Of a DNA stretch of 64,000 nucleotides, positions 19,920 to 51,340 are shown piece after piece. Numbering within the stretch: the first letter of the stretch is position 1; every line of letters starts with the position of its first letter. Source of the DNA: an uncultured Gammaproteobacteria bacterium (lineage in GTDB: Bacteria > Pseudomonadota > Gammaproteobacteria > DRLM01). The position numbers and the translations under genes are program-made. The stretch spans positions 87,318-151,317 of the forward strand of contig CAVSNY010000005.1 of the NCBI GenBank assembly GCA_963729605.1, read 5' to 3'. Below the pieces are notes generated by a model that saw only the letters and a program-made list of their open reading frames with translations, made no database searches and was not told the DNA's origin.

Positions 19920-20072
19920 TCGTCATCGACTGATTTAATCAAAGGTTCCCGCGGCACATGGATGTGCCGTCATTGCAATGGTGTGAGCCATTGAAAATGA
20001 AGGGCGGCGAAAATCACATGTCGCTGCCGTGCCCTAAAAATTCCGGGATGGAACATTCAGAGCTTCCTTAAC
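19920..20072. mobile_element. MITE-like ~155-bp repeat, copy 1 (5' end degenerate)
   Basis: Shares GGTTCCCGCGGCACATGGATGTGCCG...CAATGGTGTnAnCCATTGAAAATGAAGG...CGTGCCCTnAAAATTCCnGGATGGAAnCATTCAGnGCTTCCTTAA with the copy at 35458-35614, and the termini with the copy at 33171-33327. It lies between the aroA start and the tyrA stop. Confidence 0.55.
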
Positions 20073-20162
20073 TCGTCTCATGCCCTGCCCTCTACCTCCG
20101 ACCGATTTCAGCCGGAATCGGAGGTCACACACCTTGTTATTCACTGGCCGGATTATGAATGG

Positions 20163-21035
20163 TCACTCGACCCGTTCCTGCCGACAAAAACGGTCGCGCG
20201 CGGTTTTGGCGCGGGTAAATACCTCGGCGATGGCCTCGCCGTCTTCGGCGTCGATGGCGTCGCGCAAGCCGGCGAGGTCGTCGCTGAAACGATCGAGCAT
20301 CGCCACCACCGCCTCGCGATTGGCGAGACAGATGTCGCGCCACATTTTGGGATCACTCGATGCGATACGGGTGAAGTCGCGAAAACCGCCGGCGGCATAG
20401 CGGAAAATTTCGGCCTTTTCGTGCATACGCGCCAAGGTATCGACCAGCGCGAAGGCCAGCAGATGGGGCAGATGGCTGGTGGCGGCCAACACCTCGTCGT
20501 GATGTTCGACCATCATGTCCACCACCTCGGCGCCCGCTTGCTCCCACATCCGCCGCACGATTCGATGCGCCTCGGCATCGGTGTCGGACAAGGGCGTCAA
20601 GATCACCCGGCGGCCTTGAAACAGCTCGGCGAAAGACGCTTCCACCCCGCTCTTTTCCGTGCCGGCGATGGGATGACCGGGCACGAAGCGCGCCGGCACT
20701 TTGCCGAACACCGCTTGCGCCGCCGCCACCACGCTGCCTTTGGCGCTGCCGACATCGGTGATCACCGCGCCCGCGCTCAAGGCCGGCGCGATGCGGCGCA
20801 ACACCGGCTCCATCATGCCCAGCGGGACCGCGAGCACCACCACATCGGCGCCGCTCACCGCCAAGGTGGGATCGCTCTGATAACGATCGATCACGCCCAA
20901 TTCCACCGCCCGCCGCAACGCGCCTTCATCGCGGCCGCAGCCCACCACCTCGGCGCAGGCGCCGGCGCGTTTCAAGGCCCGCGCCAAGGAGCCGCCGATC
21001 AAGCCCACGCCGATGATGCAGAGACGGTTGATCAC
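20163..21035 (-). CDS. tyrA: prephenate/arogenate dehydrogenase
   Basis: Rossmann motif IIGVGLIGGSLARAL. TyrA-type length and location in the aromatic cluster. Confidence 0.85.
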   Translation of the reverse strand: MINRLCIIGVGLIGGSLARALKRAGACAEVVGCGRDEGALRRAVELGVIDRYQSDPTLAVSGADVVVLAVPLGMMEPVLRRIAPALSAGAVITDVGSAKGSVVAAAQAVFGKVPARFVPGHPIAGTEKSGVEASFAELFQGRRVILTPLSDTDAEAHRIVRRMWEQAGAEVVDMMVEHHDEVLAATSHLPHLLAFALVDTLARMHEKAEIFRYAAGGFRDFTRIASSDPKMWRDICLANREAVVAMLDRFSDDLAGLRDAIDAEDGEAIAEVFTRAKTARDRFCRQERVE

Positions 21036-21217
21036 GATAACTCCACCGAAAAATCGGCTTTGCTCGCGACATGCCGAATAAATTCGCCGCGCCCCCGTTC
21101 ACCCTTCACACTCACCCGCCGCGCGCGCCGGGTCGGGCCGCTTGGGGCGGGAATGAAGGCGCGCGGTACGCGGCGGCGGGTCATGGCGTGGGACTTGAGT
21201 GAATGAGGTCCGGCTGA

Positions 21218-22234
21218 TTACAACGTCCGGCCCAGCGAAACGGCGATGGCCCGCAACTCGCCCATCAGCTTGGTCAGCTCCGGCGGGCTCAAGGCCTGAT
21301 CGGCGTCGCACCAGGCCTCGGACGGGCAGGGATGCATCTCGATCAGCAGGCCGTCGGCGCCGGCCGCCACCGCGGCGCGCGCCAGCGCCGGCACCATCCA
21401 GGCCTTGCCGCCGGCGTGGCTGGGATCGACGATCACCGGGAAATGGGTCTCGCGCTTCAACACCGGAATGGCGGTGACGTCGAGCATGTTGCGGTAATAG
21501 GTCTCGAAACTGCGCACGCCGCGTTCGCAGAAGATGATGTTGTGATTGCCGCCGGCGACGATGTACTCCGCCGCCATCAGCCATTCGGAAATGGTCGCCG
21601 ACATGCCGCGTTTCAGAATCACCGGCTTCTGCACCTTGCCCACTTCCTTGAGCAGATCGAAGTTCTGCATATTGCGGGTGCCGATTTGAATCACGTCCAC
21701 GTCGTGTTCGAGAAAGGTATCGAGCATGCGCACGTCCATCAATTCGGTGACGATAGGCAAGTTGTGCTTATCCGCCGCCTTGCGGAACATGTCCAAGCCT
21801 TCCACACCCACGCCTTGAAAGGTGTAGGGACTGGTGCGCGGTTTGAACGCGCCGCCGCGCATCAGCCGGCAACCCGCCGCCGCCACCGAGGCCGCCGCCG
21901 AATCCATCTGCGGCTGGGTCTCCACCGAACACGGCCCGCCGATCACCTGGATCTGATTGCCGCCCAGCTTGATGCCGCGGATGTCGATCACCGAATCTTC
22001 CGGATGGGATATCCGCGAGACGATCTTGTACGGCTTCATCACCCGCACCACGTTCTCGACGCCGGGCAACACCTCCAGCGCCTCGATATCGATCTGGCGC
22101 TCGTCGCCGATGGCGCCGACTATGGTGCGCTCGATGCCCTTCGAGACATGGGAGCCCATGCCCATGGCCTTCAACTTGTCCGACACCGCGTCGATCTGCG
22201 CATCGGTGCTGCCCGCATTCATAATGATGATCAT
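21218..22234 (-). CDS. aroF: 3-deoxy-7-phosphoheptulonate (DAHP) synthase, type I-beta with N-terminal ferredoxin-like regulatory domain
   Basis: Near colinear match, from memory, to Thermotoga-type DAH7PS: KPYKIVSR...IGGPCSVE...RGGAFKPRTSPYTFQG...IQIGTRNMQNF...VILKRG...IVDPSHAGG...IEMHPCPSEAWCDADQAL. Confidence 0.85.
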   Translation of the reverse strand: MIIIMNAGSTDAQIDAVSDKLKAMGMGSHVSKGIERTIVGAIGDERQIDIEALEVLPGVENVVRVMKPYKIVSRISHPEDSVIDIRGIKLGGNQIQVIGGPCSVETQPQMDSAAASVAAAGCRLMRGGAFKPRTSPYTFQGVGVEGLDMFRKAADKHNLPIVTELMDVRMLDTFLEHDVDVIQIGTRNMQNFDLLKEVGKVQKPVILKRGMSATISEWLMAAEYIVAGGNHNIIFCERGVRSFETYYRNMLDVTAIPVLKRETHFPVIVDPSHAGGKAWMVPALARAAVAAGADGLLIEMHPCPSEAWCDADQALSPPELTKLMGELRAIAVSLGRTL

Positions 22235-22353
22235 GGTCGCTTACCTATAAAATTAACCGCTCAGGGCGCAAAGAAAAAAACAACTACACCACTCTACAAC
22301 CCACGACAAGGCATTTCCTGCCTAATATGTCTCACTTTACTCTTCGTTCGCCT

Positions 22354-23436
22354 TTATAAAATCGCCCGCGGATAGGAGCCCAGCACCTTCAACATCGCCG
22401 CCTTGCCGGCCAGCGCCTCCAAGGCCTTGGCGACCTTGGGGTCTGTACCATGGCCTTCGATGTCGGCGAAAAACACATACTCCCACATCCCGCGCCGGGA
22501 AGGGCGCGATTCAATACGGGTCATCGAAATGCCGTGGGCGGCGAGCGGGGCCAACAAATCGTACAAGGCGCCCGGCCGGTTGGGCGCCGAGATCAGCAAT
22601 GAAGTTTTATCGCGGCCGGAAGGCGCCACCGTTTCGCGGCCGATCACCAGAAAGCGCGTGGTATTGTCGGGTTCGTCTTCGATGTTACCGGCCAACACCC
22701 GCAGCTGATAAATATCCGCGGCCTCGCGGCTGGCGATGGCCGCCGCGTCCGTCTCGCCCGCGACGTGCCGCGCCGCTTCGGCGTTGCTGCTCATCGCGAT
22801 CCGCTCGACGCCGGCCAGATGTTCGTCCAGCCACTCGCGGCACTGCGCCAAGGCCTGTTGATGGGCATAGACCCGCCGCACCGCTCCCAGCGCGTCGCCC
22901 TTGCTCAAGAGATTGTGATGGATGCGCAGCTGCACTTCGCCGACGATCTTGAGCGGCGAGTTGAGAAACATGTCGAGGGTGTGGGTGATGACGCCTTCCG
23001 TGGAATTTTCCACGGGCACCACGCCGTAGTGGCAGGCACCCGCCTCCACGTCGCGGAACACTTCGTCGATGGCGGCATGGGCCACCGTCACCACCGAGTG
23101 ACCGAAATGCTTTAACGCGGCCGCTTGAGTGAAGGTACCTTCCGGCCCCAGATAGGCGATGCGCATCGGTTGTTCGAGGGCGAGACAGGCCGACATGATC
23201 TCGCGGAACAACCGCGCCATTTCCTCGCCGCTGAGGGGACCCGGATTGCGCGCGATCACCTTGCGCAACACCTCGGCCTCGCGCTCGGGGCGGTAAAAAT
23301 TCGCGGCGGGAACGCCGTTCTTGAGTTCCGCCACCTCTTGGGCGCACTGGGCGCGCGCATTGATTAAGGCCTGGATTTGCTCATCAAGGCCGTCGATGCG
23401 ATCGCGTATCGCTTTGAGTTTGTCTTCGCCCATCAT
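22354..23436 (-). CDS. pheA: bifunctional chorismate mutase / prephenate dehydratase
   Basis: N-terminal CM domain LKAIRDRIDGLDEQIQALINARAQCAQEVAELK, then the PDT domain (RIAYLGPEGTFTQAA...) and a C-terminal ACT. The start is chosen at the internal MM. Confidence 0.9.
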   Translation of the reverse strand: MMGEDKLKAIRDRIDGLDEQIQALINARAQCAQEVAELKNGVPAANFYRPEREAEVLRKVIARNPGPLSGEEMARLFREIMSACLALEQPMRIAYLGPEGTFTQAAALKHFGHSVVTVAHAAIDEVFRDVEAGACHYGVVPVENSTEGVITHTLDMFLNSPLKIVGEVQLRIHHNLLSKGDALGAVRRVYAHQQALAQCREWLDEHLAGVERIAMSSNAEAARHVAGETDAAAIASREAADIYQLRVLAGNIEDEPDNTTRFLVIGRETVAPSGRDKTSLLISAPNRPGALYDLLAPLAAHGISMTRIESRPSRRGMWEYVFFADIEGHGTDPKVAKALEALAGKAAMLKVLGSYPRAIL

Positions 23437-23616
23437 CCGTCCGTCATGCGACGCGCATTCGCCGTCCGCTATTTTTACCTGTGCCAACCGTGAGCCGAAC
23501 CAATCAAAGGGTATTCTTTAAAGATACCTCTATTACTCTTTACTCTTCCTCGGTCTTAGCTCTCCCGCCAAGCGAGTTAAGGTAATGCCCAGCCTAATTT
23601 CAATACTGCATCACGC

Positions 23617-24780
23617 TTACATAACCCGCACCGAGAGCACCCCCGCGATACCCTTGATGCGCTGCAATACAGCCTCGGTCACCGGACGGTCGACGTCGGT
23701 CAAGGTGTAGGCGACCTCGCCCTTGGATTTATTGAGCATGTCGATGATGTTCAGCCCGGCCTCGGCCATGGCGGTGGAGATCTGCCCCACCATATTCGGC
23801 ACATTGGCGTTGGCGATGGCGATGCGATGGCCCTCGCTGCGCGGCATCACCACCTCGGGAAAGTTCACCGAGTTGGTGATATTGCCGTTCTCGAGAAATT
23901 CGCGCACCTGATCCGCCACCATCATCGCGCAATTGTCCTCGGCCTCGTTGGTGGAGGCGCCCAGGTGCGGCAGGGCGATCACCCGCGGGTGATTCTTCAA
24001 GCGTTGCGTCGGAAAGTCGCAGACGTACGCATGGACCTTGCCGCTGTCGAGACCCTCGGCAACCGCCTGTTCGTCGACGATGCCTTCGCGCGCGAAATTG
24101 AGCAGAGTCACGCCCTTCTTCATGAAGGCGAGACGCTCGCGGTTGATCATGTGGCGGGTCGCGTCCACCAGCGGCACGTGGAAGGTCACCATGTCCGCTT
24201 GCGCGAGCAGATCATCGAAGCTGCGCGCCTGCTGCACGTCCGCCGACAAACGCCAGGCGCTTTGTACGGTGATCTGCGGATCGTAGCCCAGCACCTTCAT
24301 GCCGAGTCTCTGCGCGGTATTGGCCACCATCACGCCGATGGCGCCGAGACCCACCACGCCCAAGGTGCGGCCGGGCAGCTCGAAACCCGCGTAATCCTTC
24401 TTGCCCGCTTCGACTTGTTTGCCGAGCGCGGCGTCGTCGCCCTCCAATTTGCGGGCGTAGTCCCAGGCCTGGCAGATGTTGCGCGCGGCGAGCAGCATGC
24501 CCGCCACCACCAGTTCCTTCACCGCGTTGGCGTTGGCGCCGGGTGCGTTGAATACCGGGATACCCTTCGTGCTCATCTCGTCCACGGGAATATTGTTGAC
24601 GCCCGCGCCGGCGCGCCCCACCGCCTTCACGCTGGGGGGAAGTTCCATGCCGTGCATCTTGAACGAGCGCAGCAGGATCGCGTCCGGGTTCTTGATCTCC
24701 GAGGCGATTTCGTAACGGTCGCGCGGCAGGCGTTCCAGCCCGGCCACCGAGATGTTGTTCAGCGTGAGTATCTTGAACAT
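23617..24780 (-). CDS. serA: D-3-phosphoglycerate dehydrogenase-like 2-hydroxyacid dehydrogenase with C-terminal ACT domain
   Basis: NAD-binding GVVGLGAIGVMVA, catalytic region ...ALPHLGASTNEA..., ACT-like C-terminus. Adjacent to serC. Confidence 0.8.
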   Translation of the reverse strand: MFKILTLNNISVAGLERLPRDRYEIASEIKNPDAILLRSFKMHGMELPPSVKAVGRAGAGVNNIPVDEMSTKGIPVFNAPGANANAVKELVVAGMLLAARNICQAWDYARKLEGDDAALGKQVEAGKKDYAGFELPGRTLGVVGLGAIGVMVANTAQRLGMKVLGYDPQITVQSAWRLSADVQQARSFDDLLAQADMVTFHVPLVDATRHMINRERLAFMKKGVTLLNFAREGIVDEQAVAEGLDSGKVHAYVCDFPTQRLKNHPRVIALPHLGASTNEAEDNCAMMVADQVREFLENGNITNSVNFPEVVMPRSEGHRIAIANANVPNMVGQISTAMAEAGLNIIDMLNKSKGEVAYTLTDVDRPVTEAVLQRIKGIAGVLSVRVM

Positions 24781-24894
24781 GCAACTCCTTTCAAAAACCT
24801 TTCAACGCAAAGACGCGAAGGCGCAAAGCAAAATCCCAAGAATTTTAAAACAACAAACTTTTGCGTCTTCGCGCCTTCGCGTCGGGTGTTTTCC

Positions 24895-25977
24895 TCAACC
24901 GTTGCGCCGCGCGAAATCCTTCATGAAATCGACCAGCGTATCGACGCCCGCCTCCGGCATGGCGTTGTAGAGGCTCGCGCGCATACCGCCCACCGAGCGA
25001 TGGCCTTCCAAGGTCTTGAGTCCAGCCTGGCCGGCCTCGGCGAGGAAGGTCTTTTCCAGTTTCTCATCGGCGATGGTGAACGGGACATTCATCCAGGAAC
25101 GGGCGCTCTTCTCCACCGGATTTTTATAAAAGCCCGAGGTGTCGATGGCGTTGTACAGTTTCTCCGCCTTACGTTGATTGATGGCGGCCATGGCCTGGAG
25201 GCCGCCTTTATTCTTCAAACGCTGGAATACCAGGCCGGCCAGATACCAGCCGTAGGTAGGCGGCGTGTTGTACATGGAACCATTGTCGGCGTGAATTTTA
25301 TAATCGAACATCGCGGGAGTGCCGGCCTGGGCGCCACCCAGCAAATCGTCGCGCACGATCACCACCGTCAGCCCGGCGGGACCGATGTTCTTCTGCGCGC
25401 CGGCGTAGATGACGGCGAATTTGCTCACGTCGATGGGTCGCGACAGGATGGTCGACGACATGTCGGCCACCAGCGGCACAGCGCCGGTGTCGGGTACCCA
25501 ATGGAATTCCACGCCGCCGATGGTCTCGTTGGGCGTGTAATGCACGTAGGCGGCGTCGCCGTCGAGTTTCCACTCGCCGCGCGCCGGTATCGAAGTGAAT
25601 TTACTCGCCTCGCTGCTGGCCGCGACGTTCACCGCGCAAAAACGCTTGGCCTCGTCGATGGCCTTCTTCGACCACATGCCGGTGTTGATGTAATCCGCGG
25701 ACTTTTTACCGCGCAGCAGATTGAGCGGCACCATGGAAAACTGGCTGCTGGCGCCACCCTGCAAAAACAGCACTTTGTAATTGGCGGGAATGGCCAACAA
25801 CTCGCGCAGATCGGCCTCGGCGCGTTCGGCGATGCTCATGAATTCCTTGCCGCGATGGCTCATCTCCATCACCGACATGCCGGAACCGTTCCAGTCCAGC
25901 ATCTCGTCCCGCGCCTGCTGCAATACGTCTTCCGGCAACACCGCCGGACCCGCACTGAAGTTATATATCCGCGACAT
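24895..25977 (-). CDS. serC: phosphoserine aminotransferase
   Basis: [22 protein letters not shown]... matches the SerC N-terminus, with a PLP-lysine region. Conserved position next to gyrA. Confidence 0.9.
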
Positions 25978-26155
25978 GAATCGACCTCTTGTTAATTACA
26001 AAACCCTCAACTCAAAGACGCGGAGAAAATGCACGAAAGTCTGAATGTCCCTTAGCCACCGATTAGCCAACGCGTCATCAATGATCGGCCTGTCTACCCG
26101 CGTTTCGATAATCCCTCTTTACTTCGCGTTCCTTCGCGTGTTCGCGCCTTTGTGT

Positions 26156-28738
26156 TTATTCATTCTCTTCCGGTGCGGCCGGCGGCTCGTCGCCGCCCTC
26201 TTCGCCGTTCAATTCCGGCTCGATGATGCGCTCTATCCCCACCAGTTTTTCCTCCTCGCCGGTGGCGATGAGTTTAACACCCTGGGTGTTGCGGCCCAAC
26301 ACGGAGATGCCGCTGGTCGCGGTGCGGATCAAGGTGCCGGCGTTGGTGATCAGCATCACTTCATCCTCCGCCGTCACCGGGATGGCGCCCACCACCGCGC
26401 CGTTGCGCTCGCTGGTCTGGATCGAGATCACGCCCTGGCCGCCGCGACCGTGCAGCGGATATTCATTCAATTCGGTGCGTTTGCCGTAGCCGTTTTCGGT
26501 GGCGGTCAATATGGTGTGACCTTCCTCCGCGATGATCAGGGCGATGACCTTATGGCCTTTGCCCAGGGTAATGCCGCGCACGCCGCGGGCGGTACGGCCC
26601 ATCGGCCGCACATGCGACTCGTTGAAGCGCACGCATTTCCCGGAACTGCTGAACAGCAGCACGTCGCGGCTGCCGTCGGTGATCGCGACGCCGACCAGAT
26701 GATCGTCCTCGCGCAGTTCGACGGCGATGATGCCGCTGGTGCGCGGCCGCGAAAAATCGGTGAGCGGGGTCTTCTTCACCGTGCCGCTGGCGGTGGCCAT
26801 GAAAATGAATTTGTCCGCCGCGTATTCGCGGATCGGCAAGATCGCGGTGATGCGTTCGCCCTCTTCCAGCGGCAGCAAGTTGACGATGGGTTTGCCGCGC
26901 GAATTGCGGCTGGCCTGCGGCAATTCATAGACCTTTTTCCAATACACCTTGCCGCGATTGGAGAAACACAGAATCGTGTCGTGGGTGCTGGCGATCAGCA
27001 GCTTGTCGATGAAGTCCTCTTCTTTCACCGCCGCCGCCGATTTGCCGCGACCGCCGCGTTTTTGGGTGCGGTACTCGGTCAAAGGCTGGGCCTTGGCGTA
27101 GCCGGCGTGCGACAGCGTCACCACCACGTCCTCTTCCGTAATGAGGTCTTCGAGGCTGAGATCCTGGTGGGTGATCATGATCTCGGTGCGGCGCGCGTCG
27201 CCGTATTGCGCCTTGATCGCCAGCAACTCCTCGCGGATCACTTGCAGCAGGCGGTCGGGATTGCCGAGGATTTCCAGCAGCTCGCCGATATTGACCAGGA
27301 TTTCCTTGTACTCGTTGACGATCTTTTCCTGCTCGAGACCGGTGAGGGTGTGCAGGCGCAAATCGAGAATGGCCTTGGCCTGCGCATCGGATAAACGATA
27401 ACCGTCATCGACGAGGCCCAACTCCGGCGCGAGATTATCGGGCCGCGAAGCCGACGCGCCGGCGCGCGACAGCATTTCAACGACCAGACCCGCGGCCCAG
27501 GCCCGCGCCATCAAACCTTCCTTGGCCACCGCCGGATTGGGCGCGGCCTTGATCAGGGCGATGATGGGATCGATGTTGGCCAGCGCCACCGCCAGGCCTT
27601 CCAAGATGTGGGCGCGTTCGCGCGCCTTGCGCAACTCGAATACCGTGCGCCGCGTCACCACCTCGCGGCGATGGCGGATGAAGGCTTCCAGAATTTGCTT
27701 GAGATTGAGCAAGCGCGGCTGGCCGTCCATCACCACGACCATATTGATGCCGAACACGCTTTGCATCGAGGTGTGCTGGTAGAGATTGTTCAGCACCACT
27801 TCGGGCATTTCGCCGCGGCGCAGCTCGATGAACATGCGCATGCCGTCCTTGTCGGACTCGTCGCGCAGCTCGGTGATGCCTTCGATGCGTTTCTCTTTGA
27901 CCAGATCGGCGATTTTTTCCAGCAGGGTGGCCTTGTTCACCTGATACGGCAACTCGGTGACGATGATGGATTGCCGGCCTTTGCCGTCTTCCTCGATGTG
28001 GGTGCGGGCCCGCACGTAGATGCGGCCACGGCCGGTGTGATAGGCCTCATGGATGCCGCGCGCGCCGTTGATGATGGCGGCGGTCGGGAAATCCGGACCG
28101 GGTATCAGCTTCATCAATCCCAAAATATCGATGGCCGGATCGTCGATCACCGCGAGGCAGCCGTCGATCACCTCGTTCAAATTGTGGGGCGGCACGTTGG
28201 TGGCGAGCCCGACCGCGATGCCGGCCGCGCCGTTGATCAGCAGATTGGGGATCTTGGCGGGAAAGACGGTGGGTTCGCGCTCCGACTCGTCGTAGTTCGG
28301 CGCGAAGTCGACGGTCTCCTTGTCGAGGTCGGCCAGCAGCTCGTGGGCGATGCGCGCCATGCGCACCTCGGTGTAACGCATCGCCGCCGGGGCGTCGCCG
28401 TCCACCGAACCGAAATTGCCCTGGCCGTCGACCAGCATGTAGCGCAGCGAAAAGGGCTGGGCCATGCGGACGATGGTGTCGTAGACCGCGGTGTCGCCGT
28501 GGGGGTGGTATTTACCGATGACGTCGCCGACCACGCGCGCCGACTTTTTGTAAGGCTTGTTCCAGTCGTTGCTCAATTCGCTCATGGCGAATAGCACGCG
28601 CCGGTGCACCGGCTTGAGCCCGTCGCGGACGTCGGGCAGGGCCCGGCCCACGATCACGCTCATGGCGTACTCCATATAGGAGGTCCGCATCTCGTCTTCG
28701 ATATTGACGGACAGGACTTCTTTGGCGAATTCGGTCAT
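26156..28738 (-). CDS. gyrA: DNA gyrase subunit A
   Basis: QRDR region [20 protein letters not shown], active-site AMRYTE, and C-terminal beta-pinwheel repeats. 860 aa. Confidence 0.95.
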
Positions 28739-28888
28739 GACTGCGCAATTCCTTTCCAGAGACTAGGCCACCGCCGGCGCCCCAGCCGCAAGTAGCTTCT
28801 TGTCCAAACGGGAAATTCTAACACAGGCGGCGGCTGCATCGCAGCTCGGGCGCACGAGGCGGGCGGACGGAATCCGAGGACCGGCGAC

Positions 28889-30004
28889 TCAAGGACGGCC
28901 GCGCATCATCGCCGCCATCTTCTCCGCATTCGGCGCGGTCACCACACCCTTTTCGGTGACGATGACGTCCACCAACCCGGCCGGCGTGACGTCGAAGGAC
29001 GGGTTCCAGGCCAGCGCCCCTTCCGCCGCCACCCGCTGGCCGCCCAGGCTCAACACCTCGTCCGGCGAGCGGTTCTCGATGTGGATCTCCGCGCCGCTCT
29101 TGATCTTCATGTCCACCGTCGAGGTGGGCGCCACCACCATGAATTTCACGCCGTGATACCGCGCCGCGACCGCCAGGTTGTAAGTGCCGATCTTATTGGC
29201 GACGTCGCCGTTGGCGGCGATGCGGTCCGAACCGACGATGGCCCAGGTCACGCCGCCCTGCTTCATCAAATGCGCGGCCGCGCCGTCGGCGATCAGGGTG
29301 ACCGGGATCTCGTCCTGCACCAGCTCCCAAGCGGTGAGCCGCGCGCCCTGCAGCCAGGGGCGGGTTTCGTCGGCGTAAACGCGTTCGATCTTGCCCGCGG
29401 CGTAAGCCGAACGAATCACCCCGAGGGCCGTGCCGTAACCGCCGGTGGCCAGCGAACCGGTATTGCAATGGGTCAACACCAGGCCACGGCTTTGAATACA
29501 GGCCGCGCCCAATTCGCCCATGCGGCGGTTGGCGGCGATGTCTTCCTCGTGAATCCGGCGGGCCTCGGCCAGCAGGGCCGGCACGGGGTCGCCGCTTGCG
29601 GCGGGGCTGTTTCCGCTGGAAAGACCCTCTCCCGCTTGCGGGAGAGGGTGAATAGCGTGGATTGAATTGATCTTGGCGCGCATCCGTTCCAGCGCCCAGA
29701 ACAGATTGACCGCCGTGGGCCGGGAGTCGGCGAGACGTTGCAGATCCTGTTCGATATCCTGCCGCCAGGTCGCCGCCGAACGGGCATACCGCGCGCGCGC
29801 CGCCAGCACCACCCCGTAGGCCGCCGTCACCCCGATGGCAGGCGCGCCGCGCACCACCATATCGCGTATGGCCGCCGCCACCCCGGCGGCGTCTTCCAGC
29901 AATACTTGCTCGTGACGCAACGGCAAGACCCGCTGGTCGAGCAATTTCAAACCCTGTTCCGTCCATTCCACCGCCCGGATGGAATCGTGGCGCGTCTCTG
30001 TCAT
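28889..30004 (-). CDS. mtnA: S-methyl-5-thioribose-1-phosphate isomerase
   Basis: eIF-2B-like family: [17 protein letters not shown]...[14 protein letters not shown]...[18 protein letters not shown]. The start is set at MTETRH (ATG at 30004). Confidence 0.85.
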
Positions 30005-30245
30005 GGCCAACCTCTCGCTGATGAAGGGCGCATGATAACGGTCCGGCGCCGGGGCGGCAAAGGGCGGTTCAAGCCCCGCGCCGCGGGCCGATACATTCAA
30101 CACCCGCCGGTAACTCGACCGCTACCGGCAAGGTTTTGAATAAAACACGGCGTGATCGTTCCACCCTGTCTGGCACCGACCGGCACGACAACGGGACGTC
30201 AGCGCCATGTCATGGATAATCAGTGAAACCGAGGACAGCCTGGAA

Positions 30246-30851
30246 ATGCGCACCATCGCCGCCTTATTGCTCAGCCTGCTTACCGTCCTCTGGCAAGCCG
30301 CGGCCGCCGGGCCCATCAGCCTGGCCGATCATGCCGCGAATATCCTGGCCGCCAATGCCGCCAATGCCGCCGATGCCGCCGCGGCGCCCGCCGCCGGCGA
30401 CGACCGAACGGGATCGGCCGGTCATGACGCCGTCCCCGCCGCGGCGCCGGAAGCCGTTATGACTCCGCCGCCCACACCGGAAATGCAGTTCGTCTCCCTC
30501 GGCCGCATCACCTTCATATTCGATAAATGGACGCTCACCGACCAGAGCAAACGCACCCTCGACACGGCCGCGCGTTATCTCGCCGACCACCCGGGCGCCA
30601 GCCGCCTGTTGATCCGCGGCCACACCGACCGAGTCGGGCGCCAATCTTATAACGACGGTTTGTCCGACCGGCGCGCCGCCGCCGTGCTCGATTATCTAGT
30701 CAAGCAGGGCGTGCCCCTCGAACAGGTGCGTTGGGAAGGTCACGGCGAACATGCGCCGATCGACGAAAATTGGACGCGGCTCGGCCGGGCACGTAACCGG
30801 CAGGTAGAAATGTTCGCCATTTTCCCGACCGCCGCCGTGTCCGCGCGCTAA
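30246..30851 (+). CDS. OmpA-family (OmpA_C-like) periplasmic/outer-membrane protein with Ala/Asn-rich linker
   Basis: Signal peptide MRTIAALLLSLLTVLWQAAAAG, a low-complexity ANAANAADAAAAPAAG tract, and a C-terminal OmpA-like domain FDKWTLTDQSKRTLDTAARYLADHPGASRLLIRGHTDRVGRQSYNDGLSDRRAAAVLDYLVKQGV. Confidence 0.7.
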   Translation: MRTIAALLLSLLTVLWQAAAAGPISLADHAANILAANAANAADAAAAPAAGDDRTGSAGHDAVPAAAPEAVMTPPPTPEMQFVSLGRITFIFDKWTLTDQSKRTLDTAARYLADHPGASRLLIRGHTDRVGRQSYNDGLSDRRAAAVLDYLVKQGVPLEQVRWEGHGEHAPIDENWTRLGRARNRQVEMFAIFPTAAVSAR

Positions 30852-31021
30852 ATCATCCTCGCCGTCACCAGACCCGCTTGCGTAAAAGGATGCCCTCACC
30901 AAGACGCCGTTGACTCTGCGTCCACTTCGCACCCGCATCCCCCACTTTGAATCACCGCGCCGGACTGGCGCGCGTTATGGCTTGCGGTATACTCGCGCGA
31001 AGCCCTCACCGCATCGGACTT

Positions 31022-32342
31022 ATGGACCAGGTCGACACGCTGATACACGCCCGCTGGATCATTCCGGTGGAACCCGACGACACCGTTCACGAACACCATA
31101 GCCTCGCCATCAAAAACGGCCGCATCCATGCGATCGTCCCCGGCGCCGAGGCGCGGCGGCGTTATCACGCCGACGTCGAACTTGATCTGGCCGAACACGC
31201 GTTGATCCCCGGCCTCATCAACACCCACACCCACGCGGCGATGAGTCTGTTCCGCGGCCTTGCCGACGATCTGCCGTTGATGGAGTGGCTGACTAATCAC
31301 ATCTGGCCGGCCGAAGGCGCCTGGGTCAGCCCCGAATTCGTTTACGACGGCACGCGGCTGGCGATGGCCGAGATGTTGCGCGGCGGCACCACCTGCTTCA
31401 ACGACATGTATTTCTTCCCCGACGAGACCGCGCGCGCCGCCGATACCGCTCAGATGCGCGCGGCGGTCGGCATGATCCTCATCGACTTCCCCACCGCCTG
31501 GGCGGCGAACGCGCAGGAATACATCGACAAGGGCCTCGCGCTGCACGATCGACTACAAGAATCATCCGCTGATTCGCACGCTGTTCGCGCCACACGCGCC
31601 TTACACCGTGTCCGACGGACCGCTGGAGCACATGCGGACCCTGGCGGATCAGTTGAACGTACCCATCCACATGCACGTGCACGAGACCGCCTTCGAGGTG
31701 CAGGAAGCGGTGAACAAACTCGGCGAACGGCCGCTCGCGCGTCTGGAAAAACTCGGCCTGCTCACCCCGCAATTGCTGGCGGTGCACATGACCCAGCTCA
31801 GCGACGACGAGATCGCGGCCTGCGCCCGCGCCGGTGTCAGCGTCATCCACTGCCCCGAATCCAATCTCAAACTCGCGAGCGGTTTTTGCCCGGTGCATAA
31901 ACTCGTGAGCGCCGGCGTCAACGTCGCGCTCGGCACCGACGGCGCCGCCAGCAACAACGACCTCGACATGTTCAGCGAGATGCGCACCGCCGCCCTGCTC
32001 GCCAAGGCGGTGGCCGGCGACGCCAGCGCCCTGCCCGCCGCCGCCGCGCTGCGCATGGCGACGCTCAACGGGGCCAAGGCGCTGTGCATCGACGACGAGG
32101 CCGGTTCGCTCTGGCCCGGCAAGTCGGCGGACATCACCGCGGTGCGCCTCGGCGACATCGAGACCCAGCCGCTGTATCATCCGGTCTCGCAACTGGTCTA
32201 CGCCACCGGCCGCGACAAGGTCAGCGACGTGTGGGTGGCCGGGCGCCATCTGCTCAAGGACCGCGCGCTCACCACCCTCGACGAAACCGAGTTGAAGGCC
32301 AAGGCGGCGGCGTGGCAGCAAAAGATTCGCAAATACGATTAA
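31022..32342 (+). pseudogene. mtaD: 5-methylthioadenosine/S-adenosylhomocysteine deaminase (TRZ/ATZ amidohydrolase), apparent +1 frameshift near 31550
   Basis: The N-terminal ORF (30947..31900) carries LINTHTHAAMSLFRG. The C-terminal ORF (31608..32342) carries HVHET...[12 protein letters not shown]. The true reading ...[36 protein letters not shown]... is restored by removing one nt from ctgcacgatCgactacaag (31541-31559). Confidence 0.6.
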
Positions 32343-32386
32343 CGGGTAATCCATGAACCGAGCAACTCAACATCGATCCCGCCGAG

Positions 32387-33082
32387 GTGGCGAAATTCAA
32401 TCAGTCCGCCATGCGCTGGTGGGACCCCAACAGCGAATACAAACCGCTGCACGACATCAATCCGCTGCGCCTCGACTACATCGACCAGCGGGTCGGCCTC
32501 GCCGGCAAACAGGTGGTGGACGTCGGCTGCGGCGGCGGCATCCTCGCCGAAAGCATGGCGGCGCGCGGCGCCGAGGTCACCGGCATCGACATGGCGGACA
32601 GCGCGCTGTCGGTGGCCAGGCTGCACGCGCTGGAGTCGCGGGTGAAGGTCGATTACCGGCGGATCACCGCCGAAGAATTCGCCGCGCAAAATCCCGCCGC
32701 CTTCGACGTGGTGACCTGCATGGAACTGCTGGAGCACGTGCCTGATCCGGCCTCGCTGATCGCCGCCTGCGCGGCCTTGGCCAAACCCGGCGGACAGGTG
32801 TTTTTCTCCACCCTCAATCGCAACCCAAAGGCCTACGTGTTCGCGGTATTGGGCGCGGAATATTTATTGAAATTCCTGCCGAGGGGCACCCACGACTACG
32901 CCAAATTCATCCGCCCCGCCGAGCTGGCGCGCTGGACCCGCCGCGCCGGCCTGCACCTCGACCACCTCGCCGGTCTGAGTTACAACCCGCTCACCAAACA
33001 CTATCAGCTCAACGACGACGTCTCGGTCAATTACCTGGCCCACACCGTCAAAGAAAACGGCGGCGGACCGTTGCGGCCATGA
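32387..33082 (+). CDS. ubiG: bifunctional 3-demethylubiquinol 3-O-methyltransferase / 2-polyprenyl-6-hydroxyphenol methylase
   Basis: [32 protein letters not shown]...[13 protein letters not shown]...ELLEHVPDP is the canonical UbiG. The track start is a GTG. An upstream ATG at 32353 (MNRATQ) runs in another frame into [10 protein letters not shown], so the N-terminus is uncertain. Confidence 0.85.
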
Positions 33083-33170
33083 CGAAGCCGCGTGGCGCCG
33101 ACTGAGCTGGCGATAGGCTTCGTGCGCGTGTCCCGGCCCCCGGCTCATCGAGGCAGGGGCGTGACTAAAT

Positions 33171-33327
33171 TTAAGGAACCTCTGATTTATTAGAGGTTCC
33201 GTGCGGTGCAGGGATGCGCCGCCCTTTCTCGAACACGCAAGTGTTCGAGAATGAAGAAAAATAAAAATCACATTTTTGGTTTTCGTCCCTGAAAAATCCA
33301 GGGATGGATTTTTCAGGGCTTCCTTAA
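33171..33327. mobile_element. MITE-like 157-bp repeat, copy 2 (terminal inverted repeats TTAAGGAACCTCTGATTT / complement of ...CAGGGCTTCCTTAA)
   Basis: Its termini and several internal blocks (gaatgaag, aaaatcacat, ccctgaaaaatccagggatgga) match the copies at 19920 and 35458. Internal palindromes. Located in the ubiG-gph intergenic region. Confidence 0.55.
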
Positions 33328-33344
33328 ATAAAACGGTTCTCCTC

Positions 33345-34037
33345 ATGACCTCGCCCTCTCACCTCCCGGGTTTACGCACCGTGCTGTTCGATCTCGACGG
33401 CACCCTGGCCGACACCGCGCCCGACCTCGCCTACGCCCTCAACGCCCTGTTGACCGAACAGGGCCGCGCGCCGCTGCCGTATGCCGCGATCCGGCCGGTG
33501 GTGTCTCACGGCGCCACCGCGCTGGTGCGGCTGGGCTTCGCGGTGGCGCCGGAGAGCGCCGAATTCAGCGCCCTCCGCCAGCGGCTATTGGATTTATATC
33601 AATACAACGTCGCCCGCGAGACCCGGCTGTTCGACGGCATGCCGGCCGTGCTCCGGCACATTGAAGGCGCGGGCCTCAACTGGGGGGTGGTCACCAACAA
33701 ACCCGCCTTCCTCACCGAACCGCTGATGCGGGCACTGGATCTCGCCACCCGCGCGATCTGCATCGTCAGCGGCGACACCACCGCCCGCCGCAAACCCCAC
33801 CCCGACCCGCTGCTGCACGCCTGCCGGCTGGCCGGCAGCGCCGCGGCGCAATGCCTGTACATCGGCGACGCCGAGCGGGACATCCAGGCCGGCCGCGACG
33901 CCGGCATGCCCACCCTGGTGGCCGCCTTCGGCTACCTCGGCGCCGACGACCGGCCCGAAACCTGGGGCGCCGACGGCCTGGTCCACCAGCCGGCCGACAT
34001 CATCCGCTGGCTGGACACCCGCGCCGCCGCGCCCTGA
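33345..34037 (+). CDS. gph: HAD-superfamily phosphoglycolate phosphatase
   Basis: Motif I VLFDLDGTLADT, motif II/III ...VTNKP..., ...YIGDAERDIQAGRDAG. Conserved position after ubiG. Confidence 0.8.
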   Translation: MTSPSHLPGLRTVLFDLDGTLADTAPDLAYALNALLTEQGRAPLPYAAIRPVVSHGATALVRLGFAVAPESAEFSALRQRLLDLYQYNVARETRLFDGMPAVLRHIEGAGLNWGVVTNKPAFLTEPLMRALDLATRAICIVSGDTTARRKPHPDPLLHACRLAGSAAAQCLYIGDAERDIQAGRDAGMPTLVAAFGYLGADDRPETWGADGLVHQPADIIRWLDTRAAAP

Positions 34038-34141
34038 CTCAATCTCCCCGCCCCGGCGGCCGACACAGTGCAGGCCCCCCGCGGCGCGGAAGCGGATACA
34101 CTACTGCCCCAGCCAGACTTACCGGAGAAGTACCTTTCATC

Positions 34142-35461
34142 ATGACTGAAGCCGCCTCCTACATCACCCTGGCCCTGCTCACCGCGCTGGCGGCGCTGTG
34201 CGGCGCCTTCTTCGCCCACATCCGCGCCCAACGCCAGATCACCGGCCTGCGGGAGGAGAACGCCAGCCTCAAGGCCACCGTCAACATCGAACGCCGCACC
34301 ACCGAAGAAAAAGTCGCGATGATCGAGAGCGCCCGCAATCAGCTCACCGATACCTTCGCCGCCTTATCCAGCCAGGCGCTGCGCAACAGCACGGAAGAAT
34401 TCCTCAAGCTCGCCCAGCAAGGCATGCAGCAATTTCACGTGCGCGCCCAGGGCGATCTCGAGCAAAAGGAAAAATCCATCGGCGTGTTGATGCAGCCCGT
34501 CAAAGAGGCGCTCACCCGCACCGAACAACAACTGCGCGAGCTGGAAAAAGAACGCAAAGAGGCCTACGGCTCGCTGAGCAAACACCTGGAAAGCATGGCG
34601 CAGACCCAGCAACTCCTGCAGGGCGAGACCCGCAATCTGGTACAAGCGCTGCGCCGTCCCGAGGTGCGCGGCCAATGGGGCGAGATGACGCTGAAGCGCC
34701 TCGCCGAACTGGCGGGCATGGTGCAATACTGCGATTTCATCGAGCAGGAAACCGTGCAGGGCGAAAACGGCAATCTGCGCCCCGACATGGTGGTGCGCAT
34801 GCCCGACGGACGGGAAATCGTGGTGGACGTCAAAACCCCGCTCGACGCGTATTTGAGCGCGGTGGAAGCGCCGGACGACACGGTGCGCACCTGGCATCTC
34901 GAACGCCACGCCCGCAAGGTGCGCGACCGGGTGCGCGAACTGGCCGGCCGCAATTACTGGGCGCAGTTCAAACGCAGTCCCGACTTCGTGGTGATGTTCA
35001 TCCCCGGCGATCAATTCTTGAGCGCCGCGCTGGACGTCGACCGCGACCTGCTCGAATACGCCCTCGGCCAAAAAGTGGTGCTCGCCACGCCCACCAGCTT
35101 CGTCGCGCTGCTGCGCGCGGTGGGCTACGGCTGGCGCCAACTCAGCCTGGCGGAGAACGCGGAAAAAATCCGCGACCTCGGCGAAGAGCTTTATCAACGC
35201 CTCAGCACCTTCACCGATCATTTATCCAAGCTCGGCAAAAATCTCAGCAGCAGTCTCGACCACTACAACAAGGCGGTGGGTTCCTTCGAACGGCAAGTCA
35301 TGCCCGGCGCGCGCAAGTTCACCGAAATGGGCATCACCCCGCGCAAACCGATGCCTGATCTCGACCAGATCGAAAAAGGCGTGCGGCAAATGGAGAACGC
35401 CGCCGCGACCGCACCGCCCGAAGAAACCGCCGGCGAACCCGATCCGCCCGCCAAACATTAA
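34142..35461 (+). CDS. rmuC: DNA recombination protein RmuC
   Basis: N-terminal TM MTEAASYITLALLTALAALCGAFFA, a long coiled-coil, and a C-terminal RmuC nuclease-like domain (...GEMTLKRLAELAGMVQYCDFIEQE...VVDVKTPLDAY...). Confidence 0.85.
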   Translation: MTEAASYITLALLTALAALCGAFFAHIRAQRQITGLREENASLKATVNIERRTTEEKVAMIESARNQLTDTFAALSSQALRNSTEEFLKLAQQGMQQFHVRAQGDLEQKEKSIGVLMQPVKEALTRTEQQLRELEKERKEAYGSLSKHLESMAQTQQLLQGETRNLVQALRRPEVRGQWGEMTLKRLAELAGMVQYCDFIEQETVQGENGNLRPDMVVRMPDGREIVVDVKTPLDAYLSAVEAPDDTVRTWHLERHARKVRDRVRELAGRNYWAQFKRSPDFVVMFIPGDQFLSAALDVDRDLLEYALGQKVVLATPTSFVALLRAVGYGWRQLSLAENAEKIRDLGEELYQRLSTFTDHLSKLGKNLSSSLDHYNKAVGSFERQVMPGARKFTEMGITPRKPMPDLDQIEKGVRQMENAAATAPPEETAGEPDPPAKH

Positions 35462-35614
35462 GGAACCTCTGATTTGTTCAGAGTTTCCCGCGGCACATGG
35501 ATGTGCCGCCATTTTCAATGGTGTTAACCATTGAAAATGAAGGGGAGCGAAAATCATATTTTCGCTCCCCGTGCCCTGAAAATTCCAGGATGGAATCATT
35601 CAGCGCTTCCTTAA
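35458..35614. mobile_element. MITE-like 157-bp repeat, copy 3, overlapping the rmuC stop codon
   Basis: TTAAGGAACCTCTGATTTG...CATTCAGCGCTTCCTTAA. The rmuC TAA stop (35459-35461) lies inside the left terminal repeat. Internal palindromes CGGCACATGGATGTGCCG and CAATGGTGTTAACCATTG. Confidence 0.55.
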
Positions 35615-50532: not shown

Positions 50533-51340
50533 TATTTTTTCGTGAGGTGCCGGCCGGCGGTCGGCCGTGAAAAACGCAATAGATAATTTTTTTATAAACA
50601 TCTCATCCCCCCATAGAGTCGGCCATTAGCCCCAGATATCTCGTTTTAAGAAATGCCACCACCCCGCCGCCGGTCTTGAAGCCGGTTAATACTACTCCGT
50701 GCGGCGAAATCACCACCTCGTCCTCCACGAGATCGAAGACATCCGGCCATCGGCCGCCGCATAGATTTAAAAAAATTTTCCATGATCGCCATTGTACGAG
50801 ACATGGTTGGTTCGAGTGGAGACGGAAGGATTTTCAACTGCGGAGGTGTTGCGCATGCCGGGCACTTGCCGCTATACCTTATCCGTAATAAGGGCATCAG
50901 CAGCGCCTTGAGCCGTCGCTGAATTTTTCTGTGCATTCAATCCGACTGACGCACTCTCGCGATGCGAAGTTCCACTGCAAGAATTGGGGTTGATAAAGTT
51001 TTGCCAGAGGAACGGCTATCGGCCGCTGTTTAAGTAAAAGCCAATTATTCAACGTCTTGGCGATTTGCGGCAACCGGGCGTCGCTGCTCGCGTTAGAGGG
51101 CTTCTGTGAGCCCGTTATCTTAACCGTGCATACGCTCATGGATGGATCCACATGGATCACCATAGCATATGCGTATATGCTGTATTACGCAATGCGTCAA
51201 AGCATCGTTCACGCATCACTCAATGCGAATAAGCCCCAACCTAGAATTATTTTAAGAAAGCTCTGAATAAATCAGAGTCTCCTTAATTAAACCTTGAAAG
51301 TCCAACGCCCGTTACGCGCACGGACATCTGTTTCATTTCA

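Follow-up and report, generated by a model that had tools for sequence, protein, structure and literature searches.

We analyzed a 64,000-nucleotide stretch of DNA from an uncultured Gammaproteobacteria bacterium (contig CAVSNY010000005.1, positions 87,318 to 151,317; referred to as the window here) that carries copies of a short repeated element in the spacers between its genes. Our best explanation for these copies, which we hold to be highly probable, is that they are short, non-coding and non-autonomous IS5-like MITEs (miniature inverted-repeat transposable elements), which have terminal inverted repeats and insert at TTAA. The family occurs widely across a clade of uncultured Gammaproteobacteria, and it was recently active in the lineage of the window. 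A first-pass annotation made from the letters of the window had proposed a MITE-like element of ~157 bp in three intergenic copies. All three were recovered on the + strand where it had placed them, apart from the end of copy 1, which lies at 20071, and the proposed nature of the element is borne out by exact empty sites, many copies with unrelated flanks and IS5-type termini. A fourth member of the family, a mini copy at 51252-51286, was absent from that annotation. The copies and the terminal repeats of copy 3 are as follows; the nhmmer values refer to a profile built from the three window copies.

35458..35614, + strand: copy 3, complete, 157 bp, directly 3' of rmuC; nhmmer E=1e-49
35458..35472, + strand: left terminal inverted repeat of copy 3, TTAAGGAACCTCTGA, duplicated TTAA included
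35600..35614, - strand: right terminal inverted repeat of copy 3, reverse complement TTAAGGAAGCGCTGA
33171..33327, + strand: copy 2, complete, 157 bp; diverged subfamily, 68% identity to copy 3
19920..20071, + strand: copy 1, older copy with decayed left terminal repeat; nhmmer match spans model positions 4-156
51252..51286, no strand assigned: mini copy, 35 bp, left and right termini fused into one hairpin, TTAA at both ends

The terminal inverted repeats of the element are 15 bp long (TTAAGGAAnCTCTGA). Copies 2 and 3 start with TTAAGGAACCTCTGATTT and span TTAAGGAACCTCTGA to TTCAGnGCTTCCTTAA, while all three copies end in TTCAG(A/G/C)GCTTCCTTAA; the TTAA flanking copy 3 is found at 35458-35461 and 35611-35614. 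The earlier statement that the complete copies begin and end with TTAA is therefore true of copies 2 and 3 and does not extend to copy 1, which is not complete because its left repeat has decayed: its right end is intact, but its left terminus has degenerated to TTCGTCATCGACTGA, with loss of the initial TTAA. Copy 1 is an older, immobilized copy. A search of the window for the terminal 15-mer TTAAGGAANCTCTGA with up to two mismatches returned 7 matches versus 0.16 expected by chance, two of which are accounted for by the mini copy. The sequence of this 35-bp copy is the palindrome TTAAGAAAGCTCTGAATAAATCAGAGTCTCCTTAA; it is a termini-only derivative, and copies of the same type also occur in loci L108, L099 and L081. 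Copies 1 and 3, described before as ~85% identical throughout, share 80% identity over the whole element and 88% across 130 nt by BLAST, and the differing core ascribed to copy 2 corresponds to its 68% identity to copy 3. The elements have a GC content of 43-49%, compared with 60% for the window.

Empty sites, dispersal and IS5-like ends

To compare occupied with unoccupied alleles, we used contigs of close relatives obtained through RmuC homologues. Two of these contigs (L119 and L121), whose RmuC is 98-99% identical to that of the window, are without copies 2 and 3 and have a single TTAA at each site. At the end of rmuC both read CAAACATTAAATCCTCGTCG, where the window reads CAAACA-TTAA-element-TTAA-ATCCTCGTCG; at the site of copy 2, in the spacer upstream of a HAD hydrolase gene, L121 reads TAAATTTAAATTTATAAAACGG, whose TTAA is occupied by the element in the window. 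More distant rmuC orthologues (86-96% identity) likewise end at a single TTAA, including those of L113, L114 and L116 for copy 3. The target-site duplication that the first-pass annotation had proposed to look for is thus present as a single TTAA in the relatives versus TTAA on both sides of the element in the window. TTAA, one of the YTAR sites, is present once in the empty alleles. This shows that the elements insert at TTAA, leaving TTAA on each side, that the lineage of the window gained copies 2 and 3 recently, and that two subfamilies only 68% identical were both recently inserted in one lineage. No further exact empty sites were found among the fetched loci beyond the rmuC region. Two tandem pairs of elements share one TTAA, and the syntenic locus L100 is without copy 1, its tyrA-aroA spacer being just ~52 bp long, and has an element between cmk and rpsA, a spacer that is unoccupied in the window.

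The empty sites also settle the relationship between copy 3 and rmuC. As had been noticed from the sequence, the TAA stop codon of rmuC lies inside the left terminal repeat; the further claim that the insertion defines the C terminus of RmuC did not survive the comparison, since element-free orthologues end at the same codon. In L113, L119 and L121, rmuC ends with ...AAACATTAA and encodes the same C-terminal ...AKH without the element. The stop codon belongs to the duplicated TTAA and is older than the insertion, which therefore regenerated the C terminus rather than defining it. The family offers a clean example of a MITE with TTAA at stop codons as its target and with the stop restored on insertion, which explains how the element can directly abut genes without harm.

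Two side observations concern the site of copy 2. In L119 and L121, four additional bases (ATTT) that are absent from the window lie beside the insertion point. The corresponding methyltransferase/HAD hydrolase spacer of L113 (positions 2520-2560; RmuC 96% identical) has no element and contains the palindrome CTTTCTTAAGGCTGCCTTAAGAATC, which resembles two element tips (TTCCTTAA / TTAAGGAA) set back to back and could be a footprint, a remnant or a chance resemblance.

The size of the family was assessed by scanning a one-genome-per-species collection with an exact right-end pattern, which required GGATGGA. The scan yielded at least 112 stretches from at least 40 species-level assemblies, nearly all of them, among the matches listed, uncultured Gammaproteobacteria, with one labeled Competibacterales. 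Carrier assemblies stem from bioreactor, groundwater and biocathode samples (e.g., SRR13076527), and OZ244905.1 is another carrier. When applied to the first 112 fetched loci, the nhmmer profile gave 144 matches. We checked 85 full copies together with their flanks and found sharp edges (TTAAGGAA...TTCCTTAA), unrelated flanking DNA and TTAAGGAAnCTCTGA at both ends. A single chromosome (OZ251218.1) carries at least 33 copies, so that counting, as suggested earlier, revealed many dispersed members. These fall into size classes of 35, ~90, 157-160 and 170-231 nt, all too short to code for a transposase. The ~90-nt forms retain hairpins 1, 2 and 5 of the five internal hairpins described below, and the 35-nt forms retain the termini alone. 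The direct repeat TCAGAGnTTCC occurs in both the 3' arm of hairpin 1 and the right terminus, suggesting a simple deletion route to the 35-nt form.

This element family was previously uncatalogued. No Rfam family reached its gathering threshold anywhere in the whole window, and a permissive Rfam scan of copy 3 gave sub-threshold fragments only (e.g., RsmV with 12 bits versus a threshold of 100). A full-text literature search for the terminal sequences matched no paper; there was no similarity to the element in a plasmid collection and no exact match to it in viral contigs. The alternative that the repeat had already been catalogued, raised at first pass, can accordingly be set aside, as no Rfam family or paper matches it.

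Some of the longer copies have additional internal features. Long variants on OZ251218.1 hold a 19-nt palindrome, CCTGCCTGCWGCAGGCAGG, in up to three copies per element (L044:2873-3080, L017:3600-3826, L001:5290-5484, L014:2151-2339 and L080:4127-4279). It sits at differing internal points, namely, in the hairpin 2 loop, in hairpin 5 or in the stretch separating hairpins 3 and 4, and looks like a second, much smaller mobile palindrome similar to repetitive extragenic palindromic (REP) sequences, nested in the MITE of this chromosome. Another copy (L068:7184-7405) has an internal tandem duplication, in which the repeated segment starts with the 3' arm of hairpin 1 and takes in hairpins 2 and 3. 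Two copies in different species, L104:5954-6163 and L027:1990-2082, have seemingly orthologous flanks and appear to occupy the same site; one is full length with extra DNA in hairpin 5 and the other is left-truncated. This shared site suggests that some insertions are older than speciation and are decaying in place.

For the assignment to a transposon family, the ends of Escherichia coli IS5 were taken from an annotated copy (GGAAGGTGCGAACAAGTCC and GGAAGGTGCGAATAAGCGG). The common right end of our family, read as its reverse complement, is GGAAGCTCTGAA(C/T)AAGTCC. In 51 of 63 copies, at least 14 of 19 positions agree with the IS5 ends, and 8 of these copies reach 16/19, while just 4 of 200,000 random 19-mers of the same composition reach 14/19. 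IS5 makes 4-bp duplications of YTAR targets, TTAA included (PMC5009759). Given these IS5-like termini and the IS5-type target, we infer that an IS5-family DDE transposase, encoded at another place in the genome, would act in trans to mobilize the elements.

The five-hairpin interior

Both strands of the element fold into five hairpins closed by the termini, with a minimum free energy of -81 kcal/mol (z = -11.9). In copy 3, the hairpins are located as follows.

35462..35488, + strand: hairpin 1, GGAACCTCTGA-loop-TCAGAGTTTCC; the right terminus is repeated directly in the 3' arm
35490..35509, + strand: hairpin 2, GCGGCACATGGATGTGCCGC; loop C-ANGGAN-G at 35496-35503
35510..35539, + strand: hairpin 3, variable stem sequence with pairing maintained
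35542..35570, + strand: hairpin 4, variable stem, loop AAAATCAYA
35573..35606, + strand: hairpin 5, outer CTGAA/TTCAG helix; apical loop AGGAU, GGA at 35588-35590

The hairpins named in the first-pass annotation are real, and in copy 2 they are replaced by different yet pairing sequences. Despite their 68% identity, copies 2 and 3 share all five hairpins as well as the loop motifs. That the diverged subfamilies keep both implies that something besides the terminal repeats is under selection.

We computed pairing and covariation on 63 distinct copies. Paired cells amounted to 95.9%, versus 82% in shuffled alignments and 35-48% when the partners were slid by 1-3 columns, and the covariation score was 0.408 versus 0.158 in shuffles. 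Compensated changes on both sides were seen in 31 of 45 pairs (12/13 in helices 3 and 4 together, 7/8 in helix 5), and the variable position n of helix 1 is compensated as CG in 31 copies, AU in 12 and GC in 11. Since the copies are related, the shuffle control inflates significance, but real pairing constraints are still supported by the slid controls and by how many pair types occur. The stems of hairpins 3 and 4 vary freely, in contrast to the conserved sequence of the terminal repeats, of a TGAAG linker and of the hairpin 2 and hairpin 5 loops. Taken together, pairing that is kept by compensation and three fixed loop or linker motifs argue for some constraint on a folded single strand. This constraint would most likely act on the + strand RNA, with the copy being cotranscribed with neighboring genes. 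The strong covariation also means that the structured, small RNA-like repeat family that had been offered as an alternative to a MITE does not exclude it.

A role as an intrinsic terminator was considered separately. Copy 3 has terminator-like matches on both strands, yet the U-tract is not conserved: the window copies have it after hairpin 2, but the OZ251218.1 subfamily has an A-tract there, and a terminator was therefore rejected as the conserved function.

Competing mechanisms and a candidate RNA module

Several points weigh against an IS5-like MITE. In sequence, a 4-bp duplication of TTAA and a 2-bp duplication of TA within TTAA look the same. The window copies match the IS5 ends less well than most of the family, at 11-12 of 19 positions (12/19 for the right end of copy 3). 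A tblastn search with E. coli InsH1 gave no IS5 transposase match in the window and ~0.9 Mb of related loci, and no transposase domain was detected by Pfam in 51 of the larger open reading frames (ORFs) of the window (47 of the 54 crude ORF calls of at least 90 amino acids plus 4 others), in line with the earlier statement that the window has no transposase. The window and the ~0.9 Mb of loci also yielded no autonomous element bounded by these termini: pairs of termini at least 260 bp apart and orphan termini all proved to be truncated, duplicated or mini copies, none of them beside a transposase. Since no transposase was found, the IS5 family assignment is drawn from the termini and the target only. 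Moreover, a transposon model leaves the interior unexplained, as covarying hairpins are unnecessary for DDE cut-and-paste transposition. Finally, crude gene calls put the orientation of copies relative to their gene neighbors near random (both co-oriented, 25 cases; convergent, 20; both anti-oriented, 16; divergent, 13), with a weak bias for the upstream gene (co-oriented in 45 versus anti-oriented in 29 cases); the near balance of both co-oriented and both anti-oriented neighbors weakens a cis-acting RNA role.

A rival explanation is movement as single-stranded DNA by an HUH/Y1 transposase, with the element being a derivative of IS200/IS605 or a REP sequence moved by a REP-associated tyrosine transposase. 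In this scheme, the enzyme would recognize the subterminal hairpins, the left TTAA would serve as the target, and the right TTAA would be where the element itself is cleaved. Such a mechanism predicts the single-TTAA empty site equally well, and it fits the CTCTGA...TCAGAG(n)TTCC hairpin, found at both ends in direct orientation on the same strand, the covarying stems with fixed loops, a pattern expected if the enzyme recognizes a folded single strand, and the excess of G-U (G-T in DNA) over A-C on one strand. It is nevertheless improbable in our judgment: the 15-bp repeats are truly inverted and match the ends of the DDE element IS5 far beyond chance, copies occur in mixed orientations inside single 8-kb stretches of OZ251218.1 (e.g., +,-,+ in L097), and the termini-only mini copies have no distinct right-end hairpin. 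No replichore-wide strand bias was seen on OZ251218.1 either, although this is a weak test with origin and terminus unmapped. We give still less credence to a structured intergenic repeat (a REP-like, terminator-like or enterobacterial repetitive intergenic consensus [ERIC]-like module) that was spread by recombination or duplication with no transposition. The very stable folds of both strands, the terminator-like and weak promoter-like matches within copy 3 and the location near gene ends would suit it, but it is contradicted by the empty sites, in which exact insertions with TTAA duplication stand against near-identical flanks, and also by the unrelated flanks at 85 sites, by the tandem copies with one common TTAA and by the switch from U-tract to A-tract after hairpin 2.

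A further reading supplements the IS5-like MITE rather than replacing it. We consider it possible, though rather doubtful, that the MITE hairpins double as an RNA module in which the GGA loops of hairpins 2 and 5 would bind a CsrA/RsmA dimer, so that transcribed + strand copies would place neighboring mRNAs under Csr control or jointly titrate CsrA. Judging from motifs and folds, each copy would tentatively be a transposon with an RNA module as cargo, that is, two predicted CsrA/RsmA-binding hairpins in a five-hairpin scaffold. The loop of hairpin 2, C-A-N-G-G-A-N-G, has a closing C-G pair with an A-U pair next to it, and 62-63 of 63 copies conserve its six specified positions, with both N positions free; hairpin 2 lay outside the search pattern. 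The loop corresponds to the RsmE/CsrA consensus A/U-CANGGANG-U/A, and the hairpin agrees with 11 of 12 positions of the consensus RUACARGGAUGU from systematic evolution of ligands by exponential enrichment (PMC6849547). The GGA of the hairpin 5 loop AGGAU is retained in 18 of 20 copies that fail the GGATGGA search pattern; exactly hairpins 1, 2 and 5 are kept in the ~90-nt forms, the two GGA motifs then being ~27 nt apart; and the sole weak Rfam match on hairpin 2 is RsmV. On the + strand, G-U exceeds A-C by 96 to 38 (21 to 7 per column pairs, p = 0.013), which points to selection on one folded strand, even though this excess tallies related copies and not independent events. Against a CsrA module, the motif match was spotted post hoc, the orientation of copies relative to genes is near random, those adjoining stop codons are 8 sense versus 6 antisense, and transposase binding could account for the conservation of hairpin 5, whose 3' arm overlaps the IS5-like end. 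No csrA gene was present in the DNA sampled, a sample too small to be informative. In the literature, no paper joins CsrA with bacterial MITEs, save an Rfam release note. If the hairpins did bind CsrA, transposition would bring new genes into the Csr regulon, or the copies, dozens per genome, would together form a distributed CsrA sponge; selection on the RNA would explain why pairing and loop motifs are kept across at least 40 species, and the family would be an example of a mobile element that spreads post-transcriptional regulatory sites in bacteria. The conserved multihairpin interior with its CsrA-like loops is the unusual part of the family and merits follow-up.

Genomic setting and comparison with known systems

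With flanking genes identified by Pfam, copy 1 lies in the tyrA-aroA spacer, antisense to the minus-strand row tyrA-aroA-cmk-rpsA. Copy 2 is found between a methyltransferase gene, which we take from the gene order to be ubiG-like, and the gph-like HAD hydrolase gene. Copy 3 begins within the rmuC stop codon, and two squalene/phytoene synthase genes come next; the mini copy is intergenic, downstream of truD. The remaining genes of the window are housekeeping genes. An AT-rich stretch at 50646-51250, which adjoins the mini copy and has two small minus-strand ORFs of 96 and 88 amino acids, contrasts with these surroundings; the 96-amino-acid ORF has no Pfam match.

Across the family, only 1 of 89 copies lies within an ORF, and the TAA stop of a neighboring gene falls within the terminal TTAA in 14 cases, 8 sense and 6 antisense (crude ORF calls in both instances). 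In a genome of 60% GC, TTAA would be scarce outside T+TAA stop codons and AT-rich spacers. A target largely confined to such places would lead copies to settle beside gene ends, with the stop codon restored.

The family also has practical consequences. The repeat can be misannotated as small ORFs. Given that near-identical strains differ in occupied sites, a model of the family would aid strain typing and also annotation. In addition, a Logan contig from ERR11593883 with the exact RmuC of the window is 2345 bp long and ends 54 nt past the rmuC stop; this end, ~54 nt into copy 3, appears to reflect the breaking of short-read assemblies by the repeat.

Among known systems, IS5-derived MITEs are the closest in kind. 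The termini of our element start with GGAAG and share 14-16 of 19 positions with the IS5 ends in most copies, its flanking TTAA fits the 4-bp YTAR duplication of IS5 (PMC5009759), and the element is short, non-coding, AT-rich and intergenic. It differs from IS5 in that its target seems limited to TTAA instead of YTAR at large, and from IS5-derived MITEs in that no cognate transposase was found for it in the window and the ~0.9 Mb of loci. Its interior consists of five covarying hairpins and is no simple deletion remnant, and its size classes are modular.

Correia elements of Neisseria and ERIC elements of enterobacteria are multicopy repeats of ~100-200 bp with terminal inverted repeats that lie beside genes, and their transcripts fold stably and can alter mRNA processing (PMC10969869). 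Our element is likewise multicopy, ~100-200 bp long, bounded by terminal inverted repeats and gene adjacent, but it has no sequence similarity to either, and its host clade and termini differ. Correia elements duplicate TA. Whereas Correia and ERIC elements fold mainly as one long hairpin via their repeats, ours forms five separate hairpins with fixed loops. The BOX elements of Streptococcus pneumoniae and bcr1 of the Bacillus cereus group are modular, structured small repeats with variable internal modules and conserved RNA-like folds. The element studied here is also a modular structured small repeat, although its sequence and hosts are unrelated to theirs; BOX elements are not known to have clear terminal repeats and target duplications, both of which our element has.

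The last comparison is with the sponge small RNAs of the Csr/Rsm system (RsmY, RsmZ, RsmV and CsrB). Our element differs from them in being a dispersed transposon rather than a single small RNA gene, in having just two loop GGA motifs per copy with predicted binding and in reaching the threshold of no Rfam Rsm/Csr model. What it has in common with them is GGA in hairpin loops, with the loop of hairpin 2 corresponding to the CANGGANG consensus.

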